From contig JBHGAY010000047.1 in the NCBI GenBank assembly GCA_041946735.1, positions 1-19,524 on the forward strand: DNA of 19,524 nucleotides, in the 5' to 3' direction. Positions within the stretch are counted from its first letter, which is position 1. The number at the start of each line of letters is the position of its first letter. Source of the stretch: Candidatus Eiseniibacteriota bacterium. Lineage in GTDB: Bacteria; Eisenbacteria; RBG-16-71-46; CAIMUX01; VGJL01. Shown here piece after piece: positions 1,930 through 13,387 of the stretch. A program made the position numbers and the translations under genes. Under the pieces are notes generated by a model. That model had not been told where the DNA came from and searched no databases. It saw only the letters and a program-made list of their open reading frames with translations.

Positions 1930-2793
1930 CTACGACTCGAAGATCGCGACGACCGCCTGGTAGCGCGTGTGAACCTTCTCGACCGCGGCCTCGACCGCCG
2001 CAGCGTCCGCTCCGGCGCCGCTCGCCGCCACCCGCAGCTCGGCCGTCGCCTCGCAGAGCGACGCGAAGCCGGCCTTGAGCTCCGGCTCCTTCGCGGCGAA
2101 GCGCGCCGGGATCGGCGCCTCGACGAGCGCGCCGCAGCGCTCCACGAGGGCCTTCGCCGACACCGACAGGTCGTCCAGCCGCTTCTCCGGCATCTCCTTG
2201 TGATAGATGCCGTAGAGGACGACGTGGTAGGCGTCGAGCTCCTTCATCACCGGCCGGACGATCCGCACCATCGACTCGAAGCGGGAATGCAGAGCCTCGA
2301 CCGCGTCGAGCATCGGCTGGACCTCGCTGCCCGCCGCCGCCGTGCGATAGGTCGCGACGTCCTGCTCGAGCGAAGCGACCGCCGCGTCCCACGCAGGCTT
2401 CTTGTCGCGCAGGATCCCGGGCAGCTCCGCCGTCCGGATCGCCTGCACGTGCGCTTCCACCTGGGGCAGCAGCTCCTTGATCATCGCGGCGTTCTTGCTC
2501 GGCCAGGCTTCGTGCCAGAGCGGATAGATCACCTCGTGCAAGGCGATCAGCTCGGGGACTTCCGCCTTCGTCTCGTCCGCCGGGGCTTGCGCGTCGCCGG
2601 GCTCGGCCTGGGCGGGAACGGCTGCGGCTTCCTTCGTCCCTTCGGTCCCTGCGCTCTCTGCGGTCCCTGCGTTGCCCGCGCCGGCGCCTTCATGGCTCGG
2701 GCACTGCCCGAACGCGGGGACGACGAGGAGCAGCGCGAGCAGCAACGAACCGAGCGCCGCCATCTGGAGCGGACCAAGGAGCATTCGACGCAT
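1930..2793 (-). CDS. Secreted hypothetical protein with two tandem His-bearing helical domains
   Basis: SD AAGGAG, signal peptide ending VPAFG, Ala/Glu/Gly linker, then an internal duplication (LHEVIYPLWH...AVEALHSRF / YHVVLYGIYH...AVEKVHTRY). Confidence 0.85.
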   Translation of the reverse strand: MRRMLLGPLQMAALGSLLLALLLVVPAFGQCPSHEGAGAGNAGTAESAGTEGTKEAAAVPAQAEPGDAQAPADETKAEVPELIALHEVIYPLWHEAWPSKNAAMIKELLPQVEAHVQAIRTAELPGILRDKKPAWDAAVASLEQDVATYRTAAAGSEVQPMLDAVEALHSRFESMVRIVRPVMKELDAYHVVLYGIYHKEMPEKRLDDLSVSAKALVERCGALVEAPIPARFAAKEPELKAGFASLCEATAELRVAASGAGADAAAVEAAVEKVHTRYQAVVAIFES

Positions 2794-2875: not shown

Positions 2876-4450
2876 CTAGAACAGGAACCCGACCGACCGG
2901 TTGACGAGGCTCGCGAGCGGCGACCAGAAGACTCCGAGCAGGAGCGTCGGCCCCGCGAAGACGACGAGCAGCACCGAATGCGAGATGCCGAGCTGCAGAG
3001 CCGGAGCGCCCGGCTCGCCTCCGGCGCCCGCGATCGCCGCCCGCGCCTCCCCTTCCGGTCCCCGATCGAGGAACATCGCCTTCAGCACTCGCGCGTAATA
3101 GTACAGCGAGATGACGCTGTTCAGGATCCCGATCACGGCGAGCCAGTAGAGGTGCGCCTCGATGACCGCCGAGAAGAGGAAGAACTTGCCCACGAAGCCG
3201 GCGAACGGCGGGATCCCGGTGAGCGAGAAGAGGAAGATCGCCATCGCCACGCCGAGAAGCGGCGCGCGCGGCCCGATCCCGCGATACGCCTCGATCTCCT
3301 CCTCGTTGCCGACCTTCTCGCGGAGCGCGATCACGACCGCGAAGGCGCCGAGGTTCATGAAGAGATAGACGCCGAGATAGAACAGGACGCCGAAGAGGCC
3401 GCCGCGGCTGAGCGTCCCCGTCGCCGGATCGACCGACGCGAGCCCCATGAGCAGGTACCCGGCGTGCGCGATCGAGGAATAGGCGAGCATCCGCTTGATG
3501 TTCGACTGCTGCACCGCGATCACGTTCCCGACCGTCATCGTGAGCGCCGAGAGGACGGCGATCACCGCCGGCCAGTCGATCCGCTCCAGCGCGCCGCCCG
3601 GGATCGTCCCGAACACGTGCAGCGAGATCCGCGCGAGCATCGCGAAGCCGGCCGCCTTCGGCGCGACCGAGAGGAACGCGGTCAGGGGCGTCGCCGCTCC
3701 CTCGTACACGTCGGGACACCAGAAATGGAACGGCACCGCGGCGATCTTGTAGCCCACCCCGGCCAGGATGAGGAAGCCGGCGACCAGGATCGCGGGCTCG
3801 GCGCCGGAAGTGGCGGCGAGCGCCGGCCCGAGGCGCAGCAGATTCAGCTCCCCGGTCAGGCCGTAGAGGATCGACAGGCCGAAGATCATGGCGCCCGAGG
3901 AGACCGAGCCGAACAGGACGTATTTCAGTCCCGCCTCGCTCGCCCGCAAATCCTCCTTCACGTACCCGACGAGCACGTAGGAGAGGTAGCTGACCATTTC
4001 GAGGGAGAGGTAGAGCATGAGCAGGTTCGTCGAGGACGCCATCAGGAAGAGCCCGCCGACGACGCACATCAGGAGCGAGAAGAACTCCCCCATCCTGCGA
4101 ACGCCGTAGTCGCGTCCGGTGACGACGAGCAGCAGGACCAGGATCGTCGCAACGAGGAACAACAGCTTGAAGAAGTTCGAGAGCGGATCGAAGGCGACCG
4201 CGCCCTGGAACAGGAGGAGCGCGCCGGCGCCTTGCGGGAGCGACGCGCCCATCATGGCGATCGTGGCCACGAACGTGGCGACGAGCCCGGCCAGCGCGAC
4301 CCAGGCGGAGCGCAGCGAGCCGCGCCGGTCGGTCGTGAAGTCCGCGAGCACGGCGAGCGAGAACGTGACGAAGATCAGGATCTCCGGCAGGAACCAGCGG
4401 ACGCTCGGGATCGTGTCGAGGACCAGGTAGGTCCCAAGCCTCTCCAGCAT
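2876..4450 (-). CDS. nuoN: NADH-quinone oxidoreductase subunit N
   Basis: Polytopic membrane protein; SEAGLKY, YKIAAVPFHFWCPDVYEGA, NIKRMLAYSSIAHAGY, GIPPFAGFVGK; last gene of the operon. Confidence 0.96.
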   Translation of the reverse strand: MLERLGTYLVLDTIPSVRWFLPEILIFVTFSLAVLADFTTDRRGSLRSAWVALAGLVATFVATIAMMGASLPQGAGALLLFQGAVAFDPLSNFFKLLFLVATILVLLLVVTGRDYGVRRMGEFFSLLMCVVGGLFLMASSTNLLMLYLSLEMVSYLSYVLVGYVKEDLRASEAGLKYVLFGSVSSGAMIFGLSILYGLTGELNLLRLGPALAATSGAEPAILVAGFLILAGVGYKIAAVPFHFWCPDVYEGAATPLTAFLSVAPKAAGFAMLARISLHVFGTIPGGALERIDWPAVIAVLSALTMTVGNVIAVQQSNIKRMLAYSSIAHAGYLLMGLASVDPATGTLSRGGLFGVLFYLGVYLFMNLGAFAVVIALREKVGNEEEIEAYRGIGPRAPLLGVAMAIFLFSLTGIPPFAGFVGKFFLFSAVIEAHLYWLAVIGILNSVISLYYYARVLKAMFLDRGPEGEARAAIAGAGGEPGAPALQLGISHSVLLVVFAGPTLLLGVFWSPLASLVNRSVGFLF

Positions 4451-4460
4451 CGCCCCTCCC

Positions 4461-5927
4461 CTACACCTTCTGCGCCATCTCGACGACCCAGATCACGGAG
4501 CGGCTCATCATGTTCAGGATCGGCATCGGCCAGACGCCGAGCACGATCACGATGATGGCGAGCGGCACGAGCGTGAACAGCTCCCGTCCGTTGATGTCGG
4601 GCAGGCTCTTGTACTTCTCGTTCAATGTCCCGAGGAACATCCGCTGGAGCGTCCAGAGCATGTAGCCTGCGGTCAGCACGATCCCGACCACGGCCAGCAT
4701 CGTCAGTCCCTTGAAGACCGGGAAGGCGCCGAGGAAGACGAGCGCTTCGCTGATGAACCCGGAAAGGCCGGGCAGGCCGAGCGCCGCGAAGAACGCGATC
4801 GAGACGATTCCTGTGTAGATCGGCATCTGGTGCGCGAGCCCGCCGAAGCCGTCGATCTCGCGATGATGCGCGCGGTCGTAGATCACACCGACCAGGAGGA
4901 AGAGCATGGCCGTCGTCGTGCCGTGGTTGAACATCTGGAGCACCGCGCCGTTGACTCCGGCGACGGTGAAGGCCGCCATCCCGAGCAGGCAGTACCCCAT
5001 GTGGCTCACGGACGAATAGGCGACGAGCTTCTTCAGGTCCTTCTGCGCCATCGCGCAGAGCGCCCCGTAGAGGATGTTGATCACCCCGAGGACCGCCAGG
5101 GCCCCGGCGAAGTAGACGCTTCCGACCGGCAGGATCGGATAGGAGATCCGGAGGATGCCGTAGATCCCCATCTTCAGGAGCACGCCGGCCAGGATCACCG
5201 AGATCGCCGTCGGGGCCTCGACGTGCGCGTCCGGGAGCCAGGTGTGGAACGGGAAGACCGGAACCTTGATCGCGAAGCCGATGAACAGCGCCGCGTAGAC
5301 GACGAGCTGGAAGGTCCGGCCGTAGGCGCTCGCGTTGGCCCAGAGCTGCGTCATGTCGAAGGTGTGCGGGCTGCTCGCGAAGTAGAGCGCGATCATCGAC
5401 AGCAGCATCAGCACCGAGCCGGCCAGGGTGTAGAGGAAGAACTTGATCGCGGCGTACTCGCGCCTCGGGCCGCCCCAGATGCCGATCAGGAAGTACATCG
5501 GCAGGAGCATCACCTCCCAGAAGACGAAGAAGAGGAAGAAGTCGAGCGCGCAGAAGACGCCGATCATTCCGGTCTCGAGGAGGAGGAAGAGCGCGTAGTA
5601 GCCGCGCACCATCCGGTTGATTCCCCAGGAGGCGAACATGCAGAGGAAGCAGAGCAGGGCCGTCAGGATCACCATGGTGACCGACAGGCCGTCGACCGCC
5701 ATGAAGTACTGGATGTGGAACGCCGAGATCCAGTCGACCTTCTCGACGAACTGCAGCCCCGCCGCATTGCGATCGAACTGCGCAAAGAGCCAGACCGCCA
5801 ACAGGAACGGAACGGCCGACGCGATCGCCGCCGTCCATCTCGTGAGGTTCGGCCGGTTCTTCGGCAAGGCCAGGATCACCGCCGCCCCGATCAGGGGGAA
5901 GAAGGTCATCCAGGAAAGCACTCCCAT
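4461..5927 (-). CDS. nuoM: NADH-quinone oxidoreductase subunit M
   Basis: FWEVMLLPMYFLIG, KVPVFPFHTWLPDAHVEAPT, LLKMGIYG, LPGLSGFISE. Start at ATG 5927 because SD GGAGGAGG (5941-5934) abuts the upstream ATG 5933. Confidence 0.97.
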   Translation of the reverse strand: MGVLSWMTFFPLIGAAVILALPKNRPNLTRWTAAIASAVPFLLAVWLFAQFDRNAAGLQFVEKVDWISAFHIQYFMAVDGLSVTMVILTALLCFLCMFASWGINRMVRGYYALFLLLETGMIGVFCALDFFLFFVFWEVMLLPMYFLIGIWGGPRREYAAIKFFLYTLAGSVLMLLSMIALYFASSPHTFDMTQLWANASAYGRTFQLVVYAALFIGFAIKVPVFPFHTWLPDAHVEAPTAISVILAGVLLKMGIYGILRISYPILPVGSVYFAGALAVLGVINILYGALCAMAQKDLKKLVAYSSVSHMGYCLLGMAAFTVAGVNGAVLQMFNHGTTTAMLFLLVGVIYDRAHHREIDGFGGLAHQMPIYTGIVSIAFFAALGLPGLSGFISEALVFLGAFPVFKGLTMLAVVGIVLTAGYMLWTLQRMFLGTLNEKYKSLPDINGRELFTLVPLAIIVIVLGVWPMPILNMMSRSVIWVVEMAQKV

Positions 5928-5933
5928 CGTCAT

Positions 5934-6028
5934 CCTCCTCCGCCTCTAGCCTCTGCTTCTACTTCCGTCTTGCTTCCGTCTACTTCCGTCGAGGCTTTCG
6001 GCCTCGTCCCGCTCGTTCCCGCCGCTCG
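5934..6028 (-). other. 95-bp nuoL-nuoM intergenic element: hairpin, short tandem repeats and a strong SD
   Basis: On the mRNA: hairpin CGAGGC-CGAAA-GCCUCG (6006-5990), GACGGAAG x3 (plus-strand CTTCCGTC at 5962, 5973, 5983), then GGAGGAGG. Confidence 0.6.
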
Positions 6029-8170
6029 TCAGAAGCCGCGGATCAAGCGGACGAACACGAGCACCAGCGCGACCGTGACGACACCGAATACGTAGTTCTG
6101 GAACTTGCCGGTCTGGACCCGGCGGAACTGCCGTCCCCAAAGAAGGACGGCGGAAGCCACGCCGTTGACCATCCCGTCGATCACCTTGTTGTCGAACAGA
6201 CCGATCAACCAGGAGAAGAACCTGGTCAGCCAGGCCGCCCCGTTGACGGCGCCGTCGACCACCTTGTTGTCGAAGATCGCCGAGCCCCTCGCGAGGGCGA
6301 TCACCGGCTGGACGACGCCCGCCTGGTAGATCTCGTCGAAGTAGTACTTCCTCGAGAGGAGCGTGTGCAGGCCGGCGAAGCGCTGACGCATCGCCGCCGG
6401 CGAGAACGTTCCCTTCATGTAGAACGCCCAGGAGAGCAGGATCCCGGTCCCGGCGGCGAGGATCGAGAGGATCATCGCGATCAGGTGCGCGGACCCGTGC
6501 CCCTCGCCGTGGCCCCCCGCGTGCGCGACCGCGCCCTCGGCCCCGTGGACCGCCGGCGCCGCCTCATGCCCCGCAATCGCCGGTGCCGCTTCGTGCCCCG
6601 CGACCGCCGGCGCCTGTTGCGCCGCTTCGCCGGCCTCCCCGGTCACCGCAAGCCCCGCCTCGTGCAGTCCGCCGGAGACCATCCCCGCTTCCACCGTCCG
6701 GTAGGTCGCGATCTCCGGCTTCACGACGAGCTTCTGGAACCAGCCGCCCCATGCGGAACCGAGCGACAGGACCGCCAGCGTCACGAGCGGGATCGTCATG
6801 ACGAGCGGCGACTCGTGCGCGTGCTCGAAGCGGTGGCGATCCCGCGGTTGCCCGGTGAACGTCAGGAAGACGATCCGGAACATGTAGAACGCGGTCAGTC
6901 CCGCGGTCGCGAGCAGCAGGAGGAAGACGACGAGATGCCCGGGGTTCTCCATGCCGAACTGGAGCGCCGAGGCGAGGATCGCGTCCTTGCTGAAGAAGCC
7001 CGAGAGGCCGGGGACGCCGGAGATCGCGAGCGTCGCGATCAGGAAGGTGCCGAACGTGACCGGCATCTTGCGCCGCAGGCCGCCCATCTCCGGCATCTCC
7101 TGCGTGTGCACGGCGTGGATCACGCTGCCGCTGCCGAGGAAGAGGAGCGCCTTGAAGAAGGCGTGGGTCATCAGGTGGAAGAGCCCGGCGGTGTACCCGC
7201 CAACGCCGAGCGCGGCGACCATGTAGCCGAGCTGCGAGATCGTCGAGTAGGCGAGCCCCTTCTTGATGTCGGTCTGGACCAGCGCGATCGTCGCCGCCAT
7301 CACGGCCGTGATCAGTCCGATGTAGGCGATGAAGAGCAGCGCGTCGGGCGAGAAGAGCAGGAAGAGCCGGCCGACCATGTAGACGCCGGCCGCCACCATC
7401 GTCGCGGCATGGATCAACGCGGAGACGGGGGTCGGACCTTCCATCGCGTCGGGCAGCCAGATGTGCAGCGGGAACTGCGCCGACTTTCCGATCGCCCCGA
7501 AGAAGACGGCGATCCCGGCCGCGGTGAGGAGGTTGCCGGAGATCGTCCCGTTCGCGACGGCCCGGAAGACGTCCTCGTAGCGGAAGCTGCCGACCTGCGT
7601 GTAGAGGATCAGGATCCCGATGAACATTCCGACGTCCCCGATGCGGGTCGTCAGGAACGCCTTCTTCGCCGCGTCGCTCGCCGACTTCTTCTCGAACCAG
7701 TGGCCGATCAGCAGGTACGACGACAGTCCGACCAGCTCCCAGAAGACATAGAGGGCGAGCAGGTTGTCGCACAGCACGATCCCGAGCATCGAGAAGCTGA
7801 AGAGCCCGAGATAGCCGAAGTAGCGCGAGTAGCGGACGTCGTCGCGCATGTAGCCGATCGAGAAGAGGTGGACCAGGAACGAGACGATCGTCACCACCAT
7901 CAGCATCACGGCGGTGAGGTTGTCGAAGAGGATGCCCATCCCCGCGCGGAAGACGCCCAGGTCGATCCAGCTCCAGTGGAACCCCCGCTGGTAGTCGGGA
8001 TCGAAGACGCCGAGCGTCCGCACGAAGGTGACGAGCGCGAGAAGGAGCGACACGCCGATCGCGCCGGTCGAGAGCCAGTCGCCCTTCCGCGGCAGCTTGC
8101 CGCCGAAGAACATCTGGATCGCGAACGCCGCGAGCGGCAGCAGGAGGATCAGGACGAGATTCGTCAGCAT
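6029..8170 (-). CDS. nuoL: NADH-quinone oxidoreductase subunit L, with a His/Ala/Gly-rich loop and a lengthened lateral helix
   Basis: WELVGLSSYLLIG, KKAFLTTRIGD, GKSAQFPLHIWLPDAMEGPTPVSALIHAATMV, HAFFKALLFLGSG, C-terminal QTG. Confidence 0.97.
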   Translation of the reverse strand: MLTNLVLILLLPLAAFAIQMFFGGKLPRKGDWLSTGAIGVSLLLALVTFVRTLGVFDPDYQRGFHWSWIDLGVFRAGMGILFDNLTAVMLMVVTIVSFLVHLFSIGYMRDDVRYSRYFGYLGLFSFSMLGIVLCDNLLALYVFWELVGLSSYLLIGHWFEKKSASDAAKKAFLTTRIGDVGMFIGILILYTQVGSFRYEDVFRAVANGTISGNLLTAAGIAVFFGAIGKSAQFPLHIWLPDAMEGPTPVSALIHAATMVAAGVYMVGRLFLLFSPDALLFIAYIGLITAVMAATIALVQTDIKKGLAYSTISQLGYMVAALGVGGYTAGLFHLMTHAFFKALLFLGSGSVIHAVHTQEMPEMGGLRRKMPVTFGTFLIATLAISGVPGLSGFFSKDAILASALQFGMENPGHLVVFLLLLATAGLTAFYMFRIVFLTFTGQPRDRHRFEHAHESPLVMTIPLVTLAVLSLGSAWGGWFQKLVVKPEIATYRTVEAGMVSGGLHEAGLAVTGEAGEAAQQAPAVAGHEAAPAIAGHEAAPAVHGAEGAVAHAGGHGEGHGSAHLIAMILSILAAGTGILLSWAFYMKGTFSPAAMRQRFAGLHTLLSRKYYFDEIYQAGVVQPVIALARGSAIFDNKVVDGAVNGAAWLTRFFSWLIGLFDNKVIDGMVNGVASAVLLWGRQFRRVQTGKFQNYVFGVVTVALVLVFVRLIRGF
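6161..6274 (-). repeat. 78-bp-period (26-aa) tandem duplication inside nuoL
   Basis: CACCTTGTTGTCGAA at 6182 and 6260; protein FDNKVVDGAVNGAA / FDNKVIDGMVNGVA. Confidence 0.9.
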
Positions 8171-8173
8171 CCG

Positions 8174-8479
8174 CTAGCCCCTCATCCTGTCGACCTCGTC
8201 GACATCGATGGAGTTCCGTCTCTTGTACAGGTTCAGCACGATCGCGAGGGCGATCGCCACCTCGGCCGCCGCCATGATGATGACGAAGATCGCGAAGACC
8301 TGCCCGCGGATCCCCGGAGCGGTGTAGCGGGCGAAGGCCACGAAGTTCAGGTTCGCCGAGTTCAGGATCAGCTCGATCCCCATCAGGATCGTGACCGCGT
8401 TGCGCCGGGTGAGCACGCAATAGAACCCGGCCGTGAAGAGGATCGCCGCCACGGTCAGGTACGCCTGGAGCGGCATCAT
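8174..8479 (-). CDS. nuoK: NADH-quinone oxidoreductase subunit K
   Basis: RRNAVTILMGIELILNSANLNF, AAAEVAIALA; ATGA overlap with the nuoJ stop. It is the 3' part of track ORF 8174..9514. Confidence 0.96.
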   Translation of the reverse strand: MMPLQAYLTVAAILFTAGFYCVLTRRNAVTILMGIELILNSANLNFVAFARYTAPGIRGQVFAIFVIIMAAAEVAIALAIVLNLYKRRNSIDVDEVDRMRG

Positions 8480-8982
8480 GAGCGTCCCTCCCTCCGGGCC
8501 ATGGTCGCCGCCGCGATCAGGACGGCGAACAGGAGGACCGAGATGACCTCGAACGGCAACAGGAAATCTGTCATCAGATGCGTGCCGATCGCATGCGCGG
8601 TCGGCCCGAGCGCCTCCGGCGGGGCGACCGGCCAGGGCGTCGCGTAGATGACGTAGAGGAGCAGCCCCAGCAGGACAAGGCAGACGACCGCCGCCGGGCC
8701 GCGCTGGAAGCTCGGGCTCTTCAGATCGACGGTGCTGACCTTGTGCGTCAGCATGACGCCGAAGAGGAGCAGGATCATGATCCCGCCGACGTAGATCATC
8801 ACCTGCGTCGCCGCGAGGAAGTCGGCGTGCAGCAGGGCGTAGAGCCCGGCGACGCCGAAAAAGGCGAAGAGCAGCGCGAAGACGCTGTGGATGATCGCCC
8901 GGGCGAACGCGACCACCAGCGCCGAGCCGACGGTCAGAACGGCGAACGCCAGGAAGATCCCTTGCCGGATCGAATCGGACAT
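8476..8982 (-). CDS. nuoJ: NADH-quinone oxidoreductase subunit J
   Basis: ADFLAATQVMIYVGGIMILLLFGVMLT, LPFEVISVLL. Confidence 0.96.
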   Translation of the reverse strand: MSDSIRQGIFLAFAVLTVGSALVVAFARAIIHSVFALLFAFFGVAGLYALLHADFLAATQVMIYVGGIMILLLFGVMLTHKVSTVDLKSPSFQRGPAAVVCLVLLGLLLYVIYATPWPVAPPEALGPTAHAIGTHLMTDFLLPFEVISVLLFAVLIAAATMARREGRS

Positions 8983-9024: not shown

Positions 9025-9639
9025 CTACTCGCGCGACTCCGTGCCCGCCGGCGGCTCGGCGGCCGCCGGAGCCGGGACGGGGGCGGGGGCGGCGGCCGGC
9101 TTCGGCGCCGCCGCAGCGGCAGCCGCGGCAGCGGCAGCCGCCGCGGCCTCCGCCTTCTTCCGCTCCTCCGCCTTCTTCGCCATCTCCTTGTCCCGCTCGA
9201 GCGCGAACTGCAGGTACATCTCCCGCTTGTCGTGCACGGCCAGCTCGTATTCCTTCGTGGTCGTCAAACACTCGGTCGGGCACGGCTCGGTGCACAGCCC
9301 GCACAGCATGCAGAGCGACATGTCGATGTCGAACCGCGGGATCCACTGCGTGATCTTCGTCCCGTCGGAGGTCACGCCGTATTCGTCCTTCTCCCGCTTG
9401 ACGATCTCGATGTGGATGCACTTGACCGGGCAGGCGCGCGCGCACGCGAGGCACCCGATGCAGTCCTCCTGGCGATTGTGCAGGATGCCGCGGTAGCGCT
9501 CCGGGAGCTGCCACCTCTCGTCGGGATACTCCAGCGTCACCGGCTTCTTGAACGCCTCGCGCCCGGTCACGGACATGCCGACCAGGGCGGTCTTGAGCGA
9601 CTGGTAGATGTCGGAGACGTACTTGGCCACCGGTCCCAT
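9025..9639 (-). CDS. nuoI: NADH-quinone oxidoreductase subunit I (2x[4Fe-4S]) with an Ala/Pro-rich C-terminal tail
   Basis: VTLEYP...RYRG; CIGCLACARACP and CMLCGLCTEPCP. Start at ATG 9639, 2 bp after the nuoH stop. Confidence 0.95.
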   Translation of the reverse strand: MGPVAKYVSDIYQSLKTALVGMSVTGREAFKKPVTLEYPDERWQLPERYRGILHNRQEDCIGCLACARACPVKCIHIEIVKREKDEYGVTSDGTKITQWIPRFDIDMSLCMLCGLCTEPCPTECLTTTKEYELAVHDKREMYLQFALERDKEMAKKAEERKKAEAAAAAAAAAAAAAAPKPAAAPAPVPAPAAAEPPAGTESRE

Positions 9640-9641
9640 CG

Positions 9642-10703
9642 TTATCTCCCCGGGAAGAACCACATCTGCATCCCCAGCCCGATCAACAGCACGAACGAGA
9701 CCGGGATGAGCACCTTCCAGCAGACGTGCATCAGCTGATCGACGCGGAGCCTCGGCAGGGTCCAGCGCACCCACTGGATGACGGCGACGAGCAGGAACGT
9801 CTTGGCGACGAACCAGATCGGGCCGGGCAGGACCTGCCAGGGCAGGAAGGAGTTCCACGCGCCGAGGAACATCGTGGTGGCGACGGCCGAGATCACGAAG
9901 AGGTTCGCGAACTCCGCGAGGAAGAAGAAGGCGAACTTCATCCCGCTGTACTCGGTGTTGTAGCCGCTCACCAGCTCCGACTCCGCCTCCGGAAGGTCGA
10001 ACGGCGTGCGGTTCACTTCCGCGAGGGCGGCGATGAAGTAGACGAGCCCCGCCGCGAAGAGAAACGGCGAGCGGAGAAAGTTCCAGTGCCAGATGCCGCC
10101 CGCCTGCGAGAGACCGATCTGCGTCATGTTCAGCGTGCCGGTGTACATGATGACCCCGATCAGCGAGAGCGCGACCGGGATCTCGTAGGAGATGATCTGG
10201 CTGGCCGCCCGCATCCCTCCGTAGAGGCTCCACTTGTTGTTCGACGCCCAGCCTCCCATCATGATCCCGATCACGCCGAGGGAGCTGACCGCGAGCAGAT
10301 AGAAGATGCCGATGTCGAGATCGGCCGCGATGATCCCGTTGCCGGCCGGAATGACGGCGAAGGTGAGCATCGTCGCAAGGAATGTCAGGACCGGCGCGAT
10401 GTTGAAGAGAAGCCGGTCGGCGCTCGCGGGGACCAAATCCTCCTTCATCAGGAGCTTTAGCGCGTCGGCGATCGTCTGCGCCCAGCCGAACTTCCCGCCC
10501 GTGTAGACGGGGCCGTAGCGACTCTGGATCCGGGCGGAGATCTTCCGCTCCGTCCAGACGAAGAAGAGCGCGCAGATCGCCATCCAGCCGACGGCGACCA
10601 GGCTCGCGAAGACCATCGCGAGGAGGTAGGTAACCTCCGGGGGGATGCTACCGAGAACCGGCGACCCCGCGATCAGTCCGTCGACCCACTCCTTCACTTC
10701 CAC
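9642..10703 (-). CDS. nuoH: NADH-quinone oxidoreductase subunit H
   Basis: ERKISARIQSRYGP, ADALKLLMKED, QIISYE, NRTPFDLPEAESELVSGYNTEYSG, LPRLRVDQLM; GTG start with SD AGGAGG. Confidence 0.97.
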   Translation of the reverse strand: MEVKEWVDGLIAGSPVLGSIPPEVTYLLAMVFASLVAVGWMAICALFFVWTERKISARIQSRYGPVYTGGKFGWAQTIADALKLLMKEDLVPASADRLLFNIAPVLTFLATMLTFAVIPAGNGIIAADLDIGIFYLLAVSSLGVIGIMMGGWASNNKWSLYGGMRAASQIISYEIPVALSLIGVIMYTGTLNMTQIGLSQAGGIWHWNFLRSPFLFAAGLVYFIAALAEVNRTPFDLPEAESELVSGYNTEYSGMKFAFFFLAEFANLFVISAVATTMFLGAWNSFLPWQVLPGPIWFVAKTFLLVAVIQWVRWTLPRLRVDQLMHVCWKVLIPVSFVLLIGLGMQMWFFPGR

Positions 10704-10734: not shown

Positions 10735-11880
10735 CTAGCGGTCGATTTCCCCGAGCACGATGTCCAGCGATCCGACGATGGCCACGAGATCCGCGATCAT
10801 CACGCCGTTGCTGAGCGCGGGCACGATCGCGAGGTTCGTGAAGCACGGCGAGCGCACCTTGAGGCGCCAGAGGTTCGGCTTCCCGTCGGAGACGAGGTAG
10901 TAGCCCAGCTCGCCTCGCGGGTTCTCGACCCGGCAATACACCTCCCCCTTCGGGCACTTGATCATCTTCGGCGTCTTCGGGCTCAGGTAGTCCCCTTCGG
11001 GGATCTGCGCGAGACATTGCCGGAGGATCTTCACCGATTCCGCCATCTCCCACATCCGGACCATGTACCGGTCCCAGCAATCCCCGACCTCCCCCTTGAG
11101 CCCCTTGCCGATCGGGATGTCGAAGTCGAAGCGCGGATAGATCGAGTACGGATCGTCCTTGCGCAGATCCCAGCGCATGCCGCTCGCGCGGAGAGGGGGT
11201 CCGGTGATCCCGTAGTTGATCGCCATCTCGAGAGGGATGACGCCGACCCCGGCCGTCCTCTCGATGAAGATCTTGTTCAAGGAGAGGAGATTGTCGTAGT
11301 CCTTCAGCTTCGGCTGAAAGTAGTCGAGGAACTCGCGGATCTTCTCCAGCATCTCGGGGGTCAAGTCGCCGCTGACGCCGCCGATCCGGTAGTAGTTGTA
11401 GGTGAGCCTCGCGCCGCAGGCCATCTCGAAAATGTCCAGGATCTTCTCGCGATCGCGGAAGCCCCAGACGAGCGGAGTCACCGCACCAAGATCGTTGCCG
11501 AACGTCCCGAAGGCGACGAGGTGGCTCGCGATCCGGTTCAGCTCCGCCATGATCACACGGATGTACTCGGCGCGCTCGGGGATCTCGAGCCCCAGGAGCT
11601 TCTCGACGGTGATGACGTAGCCGTGGTTGTTGTTCATCGCCGCGATGTAGTCCATCCGGTCGGTGTACGGGATGACCCCGGTGTAGCCGACCTTCTCGGC
11701 GTGCTTCTCGAAGCAGCGATGCAGGTATCCGATGAACGGACGGACCTCCTTGACGACCTCGCCGTCGGTCGTCACCTCGAGCCGCAGCACGCCGTGCGTG
11801 GAGGGGTGCTGCGGGCCCATGTTGAGGATCATCTCCTCGGTCTGGAGGTCCTGCGGCTGGACGGTCGGGTCGATCGGCAT
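10735..11880 (-). CDS. nuoD: NADH-quinone oxidoreductase subunit D
   Basis: NMGPQHPSTHGVLRL, GYLHR, DRMDY, ENPRGELG, DIVLGEIDR; no NiFe CxxC motifs. Confidence 0.97.
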   Translation of the reverse strand: MPIDPTVQPQDLQTEEMILNMGPQHPSTHGVLRLEVTTDGEVVKEVRPFIGYLHRCFEKHAEKVGYTGVIPYTDRMDYIAAMNNNHGYVITVEKLLGLEIPERAEYIRVIMAELNRIASHLVAFGTFGNDLGAVTPLVWGFRDREKILDIFEMACGARLTYNYYRIGGVSGDLTPEMLEKIREFLDYFQPKLKDYDNLLSLNKIFIERTAGVGVIPLEMAINYGITGPPLRASGMRWDLRKDDPYSIYPRFDFDIPIGKGLKGEVGDCWDRYMVRMWEMAESVKILRQCLAQIPEGDYLSPKTPKMIKCPKGEVYCRVENPRGELGYYLVSDGKPNLWRLKVRSPCFTNLAIVPALSNGVMIADLVAIVGSLDIVLGEIDR

Positions 11881-11917: not shown

Positions 11918-12397
11918 CTACGGCTTGTTCGTCACGCCCCGGTACGACTCCGGGTAGACGTAGTCCTTGCGAAGCGGGTGGCCCTCCCAGTCGAACGGCA
12001 GGAGGATGCGCCGCAAATCCGGATGGCCCTCGAAGTGCACCCCGAGCATGTCGTAGCACTCGCGCTCGTGCCATCCCGCCATCTTCCACACCGGCTCGAC
12101 CGTCGGGAGCGCCGGCGCGGCTCGATCGAGCAGCGCCTTCAGCGTCAGCTTGCGGCCATGCGTCTGCGAATGGAGGTGATAGACGACCGCGATCTGGTCC
12201 GGCGGGTAGTCGACGCCGGAGAGGCACATCAGCCACTCGTAGGAATGTTCTCGATCGTCGCGGAGGAATCGGCACACCTCCGCGATCCTCGGCGGATCGA
12301 TCGACAGGAACGGATCCCCCGCGTGCGCCGTCTCGACGCTCTTCACGACTCCCGGGAAGCGGGCGTTCAGCCGCTCGGCGACCTCCTGGATCTCCAC
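11918..12397 (-). CDS. nuoC: NADH-quinone oxidoreductase subunit C
   Basis: WHERECYDMLGVHFEGHPDLRRILLPFDWEGHPLRKDY. Confidence 0.97.
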   Translation of the reverse strand: MEIQEVAERLNARFPGVVKSVETAHAGDPFLSIDPPRIAEVCRFLRDDREHSYEWLMCLSGVDYPPDQIAVVYHLHSQTHGRKLTLKALLDRAAPALPTVEPVWKMAGWHERECYDMLGVHFEGHPDLRRILLPFDWEGHPLRKDYVYPESYRGVTNKP

Positions 12398-12916
12398 CTA
12401 CGCAGCCCCCCCCACCACGATCGGAGCGCGGTTCTTCGCGATCGTCTTCTTCTTGATCACCTGGTTCTGGAGCGTGATCAGCGCATCGAGGAGCGCCTCG
12501 GGACGGGGGGGACAGCCGGTGACGTAGATGTCGACCGGGATGATCTTGTCGACCCCCTTCAAGACCGAGTAGCCGTGCTCCCAGTACGGGCCGCCGGCGT
12601 TGGAGCAGCTGCCCATCGAGATCACGTACTTCGGTTCCGGCATCTGGTCGTAGAGCAGCTTGACGCGCGACGCCATCTGATGGGTCACCGTCCCGGCGAC
12701 GATCATCAGGTCGGACTGCCGCGGCGTGGCGCGGAACGGGCCGCTCCCGAAGCGGTCGATGTCGTAACGGCTCGCGCCGGTCGCCATCATCTCGATCGCG
12801 CAGCAGGCGAGCCCGAAGGTGACCGGCCAGACGCTCGAGCGGCGCGCCCAATTGATCACGGCGTCGAGAGAGGTGACGACGACCCCGTCGTTGAGCTTGT
12901 TCTCGATCGGACTCAT
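12398..12916 (-). CDS. nuoB: NADH-quinone oxidoreductase subunit B (N2 cluster)
   Basis: [31 protein letters not shown]. Confidence 0.97.
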
Positions 12917-13387
12917 CTAGCGCCTGCCTCCCGCGGCCTCGGCCTTCGCTTCGATTCCTTCGACCTTCCTCGCGATCCGCCGTTCGTCGAGCGGGAGCGG
13001 GGCTTTCACGTCCTCGCGGCGCACCTGCGGGCGCACCCACTCCAAATCCCCCTTCTTCCAGACATAGGCCAGCGCTTCGAGCAGGCTCACGAGGAAGATC
13101 AGGAGATAGACGAAGGAGACGACCCCCATCTGCTTGAAGACGGTCGCCCAGGGGTAGAGCAGCACGATCTCGACGTCGAAGACGACGAAGATGAGCGCCA
13201 CGACGTAGAAGCGGATGTTGAACTTGATCCAGGGGCTGCCGACCGGACGCTCGCCGCACTCGTAGATCGACTGCTTTTCGGCTCCGGGCGCGAACGGACG
13301 AAGGATCTTTCCGAGCCCCAGCGTAAAGGCGGCGAACCCGACCCCTACGACGATGAAGACAAGGACGGTGGCGAAATGGAACTCCAC
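12917..13387 (-). CDS. nuoA: NADH-quinone oxidoreductase subunit A
   Basis: KQSIYECGERP, FYVVALIFVVFDVEIVLLYPWA, YVWKKGDLEW; GTG start with SD GGAGGAG. Confidence 0.96.
   Translation of the reverse strand: MEFHFATVLVFIVVGVGFAAFTLGLGKILRPFAPGAEKQSIYECGERPVGSPWIKFNIRFYVVALIFVVFDVEIVLLYPWATVFKQMGVVSFVYLLIFLVSLLEALAYVWKKGDLEWVRPQVRREDVKAPLPLDERRIARKVEGIEAKAEAAGGRR

Follow-up and report, generated by a model that had tools for sequence, protein, structure and literature searches.

What is a lengthened NuoL lateral helix for in a complex I operon that encodes only one NuoM? The question is raised by the window, as we call the whole stretch of DNA that was analysed: 19,524 nucleotides from a Candidatus Eiseniibacteriota bacterium, which make up one entire contig (JBHGAY010000047.1; 19.5 kb, C42 in our numbering, 67% GC) of a 4.89-Mb draft genome in 72 contigs that is 94.8% complete. 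The window carries a nuo operon whose nuoL has a tandem duplication of 26 residues in the lateral helix (HL), the strap helix of complex I. This operon almost certainly belongs, as an unexceptional case, to a large family of 11-gene operons that spans several phyla and lacks the NADH module, in which an old and conserved 26-residue NuoL duplication accompanies a single nuoM; an assembly error and a split 2M complex can both be set aside. As to what the long strap does, we favour, at a probability of roughly 0.4, a four-module membrane arm in which one encoded subunit would be used twice.

The 2M complex I of Nitrospira and others was reportedly described by Chadwick, Hemp, Fischer and Orphan in 2018 (ISME J 12:2668). 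Such enzymes combine a lengthened NuoL with a second NuoM, according to the passages of two papers that treat them (PMC6606698, PMC7117926). In the sections on complex I of Yu, Chadwick, Lingappa and Leadbetter (2022, mBio; PMC9040806), the 26-residue HL insertion of the Nitrospira 2M enzyme is also reported in the NuoL of Complex_I_1 and Complex_I_2 of Ca. Manganitrophaceae, in gene clusters that are canonical in content and order. The occurrence of the HL insertion with the standard three pump subunits is called curious in those sections, and left unexplained there. Beyond this paper, full-text literature searches turned up no description of a long HL alongside a single nuoM.

The original prediction was placed at 4461-6350, a range that comprises nuoM and the last 107 codons, at the 3' end, of nuoL. 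It had described an operon with L, one M and N and no nuoEFG, which matches the Pfam assignments: each nuo protein of the window hits its own family, nuoL lies between nuoK and nuoM, a single PF00361 gene lies between nuoL and nuoN, and nuoH comes directly after nuoD, so that nuoEFG are absent from the operon. The features that matter most for the argument are these:

6029-8170, minus strand: nuoL, 713 amino acids, with lengthened HL (PF00361 at 1.4e-83, PF00662 at 8.7e-20)
6113-6346, minus strand: predicted helix HL, residues 609-686 (AlphaFold2 secondary structure)
6197-6274, minus strand: HL unit 1, residues 633-658, with head motif FD..V(V/I)DG.VNG (translation, repeat and conservation)
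6119-6196, minus strand: HL unit 2, residues 659-684, with the same head motif again (second phmmer domain on 8qby_L)
6035-6103, minus strand: predicted anchor helix, transmembrane helix 16 (TM16), residues 690-712, past the QTG elbow (AlphaFold2)
4461-5933, minus strand: nuoM, 490 amino acids, the only nuoM of the operon (PF00361 at 2.1e-75, PF01059)
2876-4450, minus strand: nuoN, 524 amino acids (PF00361 at 2.1e-69)

The tandem 26-residue duplication that had been proposed for the HL is indeed there, with its two units at residues 633-658 and 659-684. Counted on the translation, 11 of the 26 positions are identical between units, and in the DNA a 41-nucleotide stretch recurs at a spacing of 78 nucleotides with 83% identity. 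When the solved chains were searched with phmmer, the lone motif of Paracoccus NuoL (8qby_L) matched both units, as two separate domains. The distance from D612 to Q686 inclusive is 75 residues, versus 51 and 46 in the two other NuoLs of the same genome and 49-51 in 56 canonical loci. The contrast of 75 with roughly 48-49 given in the original prediction therefore holds, its canonical figure being close to the measured 46-51, and the net lengthening of about 24-29 residues is real. Across 74 distinct relatives, each of the head positions F, D, D, G, N and G shows conservation of 90% or higher in both units. The consensus of the elbow preceding TM16 does not differ between long NuoLs (22) and canonical ones (58).

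In phmmer searches against solved NuoL, NdhF and ND5 chains, the NuoL of the window matched at up to 5.6e-136, with NdhF1 the best match for the core. It shares its Pfam families, the motif that starts the HL and the QTG elbow before TM16 with canonical NuoL/Nqo12/ND5 (E. coli 3rko and 7z7r, T. thermophilus 4he8, Paracoccus 8qby), as well as the fold over residues 1-666 (Z 46-48), whereas the solved chains have one FD..VIDG.VNG-type unit and the window NuoL has two. The cyanobacterial NDH-1 complex (6hum, 6khj), from which that best core match comes, likewise has eleven subunits and no nuoEFG, but the HL of NdhF1 is canonical, and the span is 49 residues in four cyanobacterial loci.

The AlphaFold2 (AF2) model of NuoL, built on an alignment of 23 sequences, has a predicted local distance difference test score (pLDDT) of 78.3 and shows the fold of solved NuoLs: 14 core helices, TM15, the lateral helix and a C-terminal anchor helix. 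Compared with 50 solved entries it gives Z 44-49 over residues 1-666, and none of the solved NuoL chains aligned past model residue 667. The lateral helix is modelled as a helix over 609-663, a break at the second D-G, a helix over 665-686 and then TM16 at 690-712, with a pLDDT of 60-72 over its first part that drops under 50 at residue 659 and beyond. The model thus predicts that the extension stays helical and is not folded back, at a pLDDT below 50 in unit 2. An Ala/Glu/His-rich, low-complexity insert also stands out in the model:

6500-6685, minus strand: residues 496-557 of NuoL, between TM14 and TM15 (pLDDT below 50)

It is predicted to be disordered and has no secondary structure in the AF2 model; a similar insert lies at the same place in Paracoccus 8qby_L, and its length varies among the closest relatives.

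Could the layout be an artefact, with a near-identical second nuoM collapsed or the nuoL repeat mis-joined during assembly? In favour of this stands the fact that the 19.5-kb window is one complete contig of a draft in 72 contigs. Logan contigs of run X1, however, match the stretch with zero differences, at contig-mean rather than raw-read depths of 22.7, 23.2, 22.1, 30.8, 24.5, 17.9, 26.4 and 26.5 over nuoN, nuoM and nuoL. Higher depth bins at 5153-5514 and 6963-7505 are sums that include contigs of other organisms on the conserved cores. One X1 contig (3461-5196) spans the N-M junction, and another (5474-7162) spans both the L-M junction and the HL repeat without differences, as does a contig from a different study (X2, 5495-6520). 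Raw reads of X8 contributed 15 partial reads only. The suggestion of a collapsed nuoM duplication therefore falls: contig depth is flat at 22-27, the junctions are bridged, and the same layout recurs at 17 other loci. We regard an assembly artefact as having a negligible chance.

A second possibility raised by the original prediction was that an additional NuoM or MrpD is encoded elsewhere. A PF00361 search of the genome, of which about 5% is unseen, gave 12 matches corresponding to 11 genes: L, M and N each in the window, on contig C1 and on contig C38, and two genes on contig C15. Every one of the 11 thus belongs to one of three L-M-N operons or to a hyf-like cluster, and no orphan nuoM or antiporter-like gene was found in this 94.8%-complete draft, so that the idea finds no support in this genome. 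The C15 pair is clustered with NuoH-like and NuoK-like/HyfE-like genes, and the cluster resembles the membrane arm of a group 4 hydrogenase of the hyf type, so named here from its Pfam pattern. Its genes (L013:3634-9535, minus strand) encode a 661-residue NuoL-like, a NuoH-like, a HyfE/NuoK-like and a 495-residue antiporter-like protein, and are preceded by a gene for a regulator with helix-turn-helix and PTS-EIIA domains. PF00361 pairs at similar spacing occur in several other carriers of long-HL operons.

The long HL turns out to be widespread. The D-to-Q span was compared across the window NuoL, its two paralogs and 80 loci, of which 3 were cut off. The distribution is bimodal, with 46-51 residues in 58 rows, 75-78 in 20 and 85 in 2, and nothing between. 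A long HL is present in 21 of the 80 loci. Where long-HL loci are complete downstream, L-M-N with one M is found in 17 of 18, and a Nitrospira metagenome-assembled genome (MAG; locus L077) has the only L-M-M-N; the other three run off the end of their contig. Among the 56 loci with an HL of canonical length, two M genes never occur. The view of the window operon as a rare mismatch between signature and gene content does not survive this comparison, one nuoM being the rule (17 of 18) and two the exception (1 of 18). The two rows at 85 residues are Acidobacteriota loci (L057, L068), about 10 residues above the usual long form, with the surplus before the first unit.

A search with NuoL residues 560-713 extended the family to 439 proteins at E <= 0.001. 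Among the 120 matches listed, 119 have two motifs exactly 26 residues apart, and the remaining match has the same 76-residue spacing; the closest named ones among them are Candidatus Eisenbacteria MAGs, with others from Bacteroidota, Zixibacteria and Binatia. The long NuoL C-terminus is present in all five genomes of the same family, and the L-M-N order is seen where contigs permit (G008, G010 and, from the same order, G013). A cultured organism, Melioribacter (L017), has the same operon type. The nuoD-nuoH gap is at most 333 nucleotides, leaving no nuoEFG, in all 14 long-HL loci that show both genes; canonical-length loci divide into 14 with a small gap and 10 with a gap of 2.5-5.3 kb, in counts that include related, non-independent genomes.

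Trees of NuoL, built without the HL columns, and of NuoM, with nuoN as outgroup, were computed with FastTree; support values are local only, and no root was inferred. The window NuoL falls within a 10-row clade of exclusively long forms (support 100), with L026 as sister. The long state requires five changes on the full NuoL tree and at least three when only the branches with marked local support are counted, and the insert of each long lineage reproduces the same HL unit. The NuoM tree mirrors the NuoL tree, and the window nuoM lies in all-long clades of 10 rows (support 99) and 12 rows (support 98). The first and second M of the Nitrospira locus do not form a sister pair; the second joins M genes of another complex I lineage with support 99.

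How does the window compare with its nearest known systems? The 2M complex I of Nitrospira L077 has the same lengthening, by 26 residues at the same place and with the same unit, in an operon that also lacks nuoE and nuoF. It differs in its defining second nuoM, which neither the window operon nor the genome has, and it lies outside the all-long NuoL clade of the window. Complex_I_1 and Complex_I_2 of Ca. Manganitrophaceae, as the cited sections describe them, resemble the window in having the HL insertion with only three standard pump subunits; they belong to another phylum and, in that same description, are canonical in gene content, unlike the nuoEFG-less operon here.

The reading that we favour begins with the geometry of the strap. 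A helix rises 1.5 Å per residue, so 26 helical residues add about 39 Å, which is roughly the width of one antiporter-like subunit in solved structures. The strap may act as a ruler, with one unit for each antiporter-like subunit passed, and a three-unit strap would then accompany a four-module arm of the L-X-M/N type. The fourth module would be a second copy of a subunit already encoded in the operon, either NuoM or NuoN, given that the operon has no separate gene for it. In the simplest version NuoM would be used twice, and one more proton would be moved per cycle, as proposed for 2M enzymes.

Several of the observations above speak for a four-module arm. HL length increases in discrete steps (75-78 and 85 versus 46-51 residues), and the long state, which requires at least three changes on the tree, is always made with the same unit. 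A matching insertion stands beside a genuine fourth pump gene in Nitrospira L077, and the AF2 extension stays helical, with no solved NuoL aligned past model residue 667. The conservation of the head motif in both units is more in line with a pair of docking sites on homologous surfaces than with a neutral spacer, and the shared elbow consensus fits an anchor site for TM16 that has not changed. Two like docking sites and an unchanged anchor would together favour one more antiporter-like module, the fourth, between NuoL and the anchor.

A rival reading is a longer brace with no extra subunit, an explanation that we consider possible though not the one to be preferred. The L-M-N arm would be as encoded, and the extra 39 Å would carry the strap past NuoN and set TM16 beside NuoK/J/A or NuoH, stiffening the junction with the E-channel. 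No unprecedented stoichiometry is required, and the prevalence of one nuoM among complete long-HL loci and the lack of an orphan nuoM in this genome both agree with it. The consistent absence of nuoEFG from long-HL operons could also be accommodated, since a change in the proximal arm could accompany a changed input module. It is less easily reconciled with the head motif, which unit 2 shares with unit 1 although it would lie on non-homologous subunits, or with the elbow and TM16, whose consensus equals the canonical one although the anchor partner would differ.

Considerations of a different kind also weigh against the use of one subunit twice. We know of no complex I in which an antiporter subunit is so used, and an M-M interface would be hypothetical. 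The match of one unit to one subunit and the placement of TM16 at NuoN are assumed from the general geometry of solved structures. The fixed step of 26 residues may reflect only the origin of the insert by duplication of a unit, and conservation of the head motif could serve kinking of the helix and not docking. AF2 confidence is below 50 precisely in the second unit, the two Acidobacteriota loci have 85 residues and not 75, and the ratio of 17 to 1 between one-M and two-M long-HL operons means that strap length plainly needs no second gene.

If a fourth module is present, it might instead be borrowed in trans, for example as the NuoM of a canonical complex I operon in the same genome. Candidates exist in the two further L-M-N operons on C1 and C38, and most of the 20 other long-HL genomes also have a second nuo-like triplet, judged from hit coordinates in which hyf and Mrp types are unsorted. 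The affinity of the second Nitrospira M for another complex I lineage looks like recruitment of this kind, and isolated single PF00361 genes occur in three genomes (G036, G041 and G043). Those of G036, the Ignavibacteria MAG that carries the long-HL L-M-N locus L018, lie at C7:219200-220072, C7:174202-175083 and C4:66716-67570; the others are at C3:563741 in G041 and C108:71392 in G043. Against borrowing stand the lack of any orphan in the genome under study and G037, a 2.3-Mb genome of unstated completeness that has no PF00361 genes beyond the three of its long-HL operon. Sharing of a subunit between paralogous complexes is, to our knowledge, undocumented, and we consider this explanation improbable.

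We give a similarly slim chance to the idea that the long strap is an evolutionary leftover or transitional state, in which the unit was gained for a second nuoM, or kept after its loss, and has no present role. This is one of two readings proposed for Ca. Manganitrophaceae in the cited sections of Yu et al. 2022 (PMC9040806), and it is in keeping with the NuoL tree, in which L086, an NC10 locus with a long HL and one M, adjoins the 2M Nitrospira locus. The length and motif of the unit are nevertheless conserved over 74 distinct sequences from several phyla, and within an all-long clade with support of 100, whereas 26 helical residues that shifted a membrane anchor to no purpose should tend to degenerate or vanish.

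The four-module reading can be sharpened into a more specific proposal that is, taken as a whole, on the doubtful side: a single nuoM (or nuoN) would supply two adjacent subunits, a homo-2M arrangement, with the three-unit strap setting four pump modules and a fifth proton per cycle. In this proposal the arrangement would be common among operons without EFG across many phyla, and hetero-2M enzymes would have arisen from it, as the ancestral state, through capture of a second gene.

The 11 genes of the operon run in the order nuoABCDHIJKLMN, all on the minus strand, and the eight upstream of nuoL, each assigned by its own Pfam family, are as follows:

12917-13387, minus strand: nuoA
12398-12916, minus strand: nuoB
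11918-12397, minus strand: nuoC
10735-11880, minus strand: nuoD
9642-10703, minus strand: nuoH
about 9028-9639, minus strand: nuoI
8476-8982, minus strand: nuoJ
8177-8476, minus strand: nuoK

A spacer separates the two genes of main interest:

5934-6028, minus strand: nuoL-nuoM spacer, 95 nucleotides, purine-rich (sequence reading)

It contains the word GACGGAAG three times and a Shine-Dalgarno-like GGAGGAGG run ahead of the nuoM start. By gene calls, spacers of 16-115 nucleotides occur in several clade members too, and the remaining nuo junctions are tight. The regions upstream of every nuo gene are G-rich, and a comparison of Shine-Dalgarno sequences is thus non-discriminating.

Past nuoN, by 82 nucleotides, lies an open reading frame of 287 codons (1930-2793, minus strand) with a signal-peptide-like start and a coding-type GC content at third codon positions of 0.90; it hits no Pfam family, and a search with this query, made without a positive control, gave no match in five related genomes. 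On the plus strand, 132-1841 encodes a 569-residue protein with BNR/Ycf48-like and sortilin-Vps10 repeats that is unrelated to the operon. An accessory gene tied to the long strap was considered and rejected, as the genes past nuoN vary among loci and include DUF502, ExbB/ExbD/TonB, ATP synthase I/a, an M48 peptidase and others. Pairs of complex I operons arranged tail to tail within 10 kb occur at three loci (L062, L078 and L081). One member of the pair has a long HL in L062 and L078; at L081 the HL of the forward operon is canonical, and nuoN alone is seen on the reverse strand.

The window locus is a typical new member of a known but unexplained kind, and taken alone it matters little. What it brings into view is that the strap helix of complex I seems to be built from 26-residue units, and that most long-strap operons have more of these units than their pump genes can explain. 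Should the strap prove to be a longer brace, HL length would no longer be usable as a signature of an extra pump in genome annotation. Should the extra unit instead hold an encoded subunit for the second time, the proton/electron stoichiometry of many uncultured bacteria, and of some cultured ones, would lie above that expected from their gene counts, and 2M enzymes would have a simple evolutionary origin.

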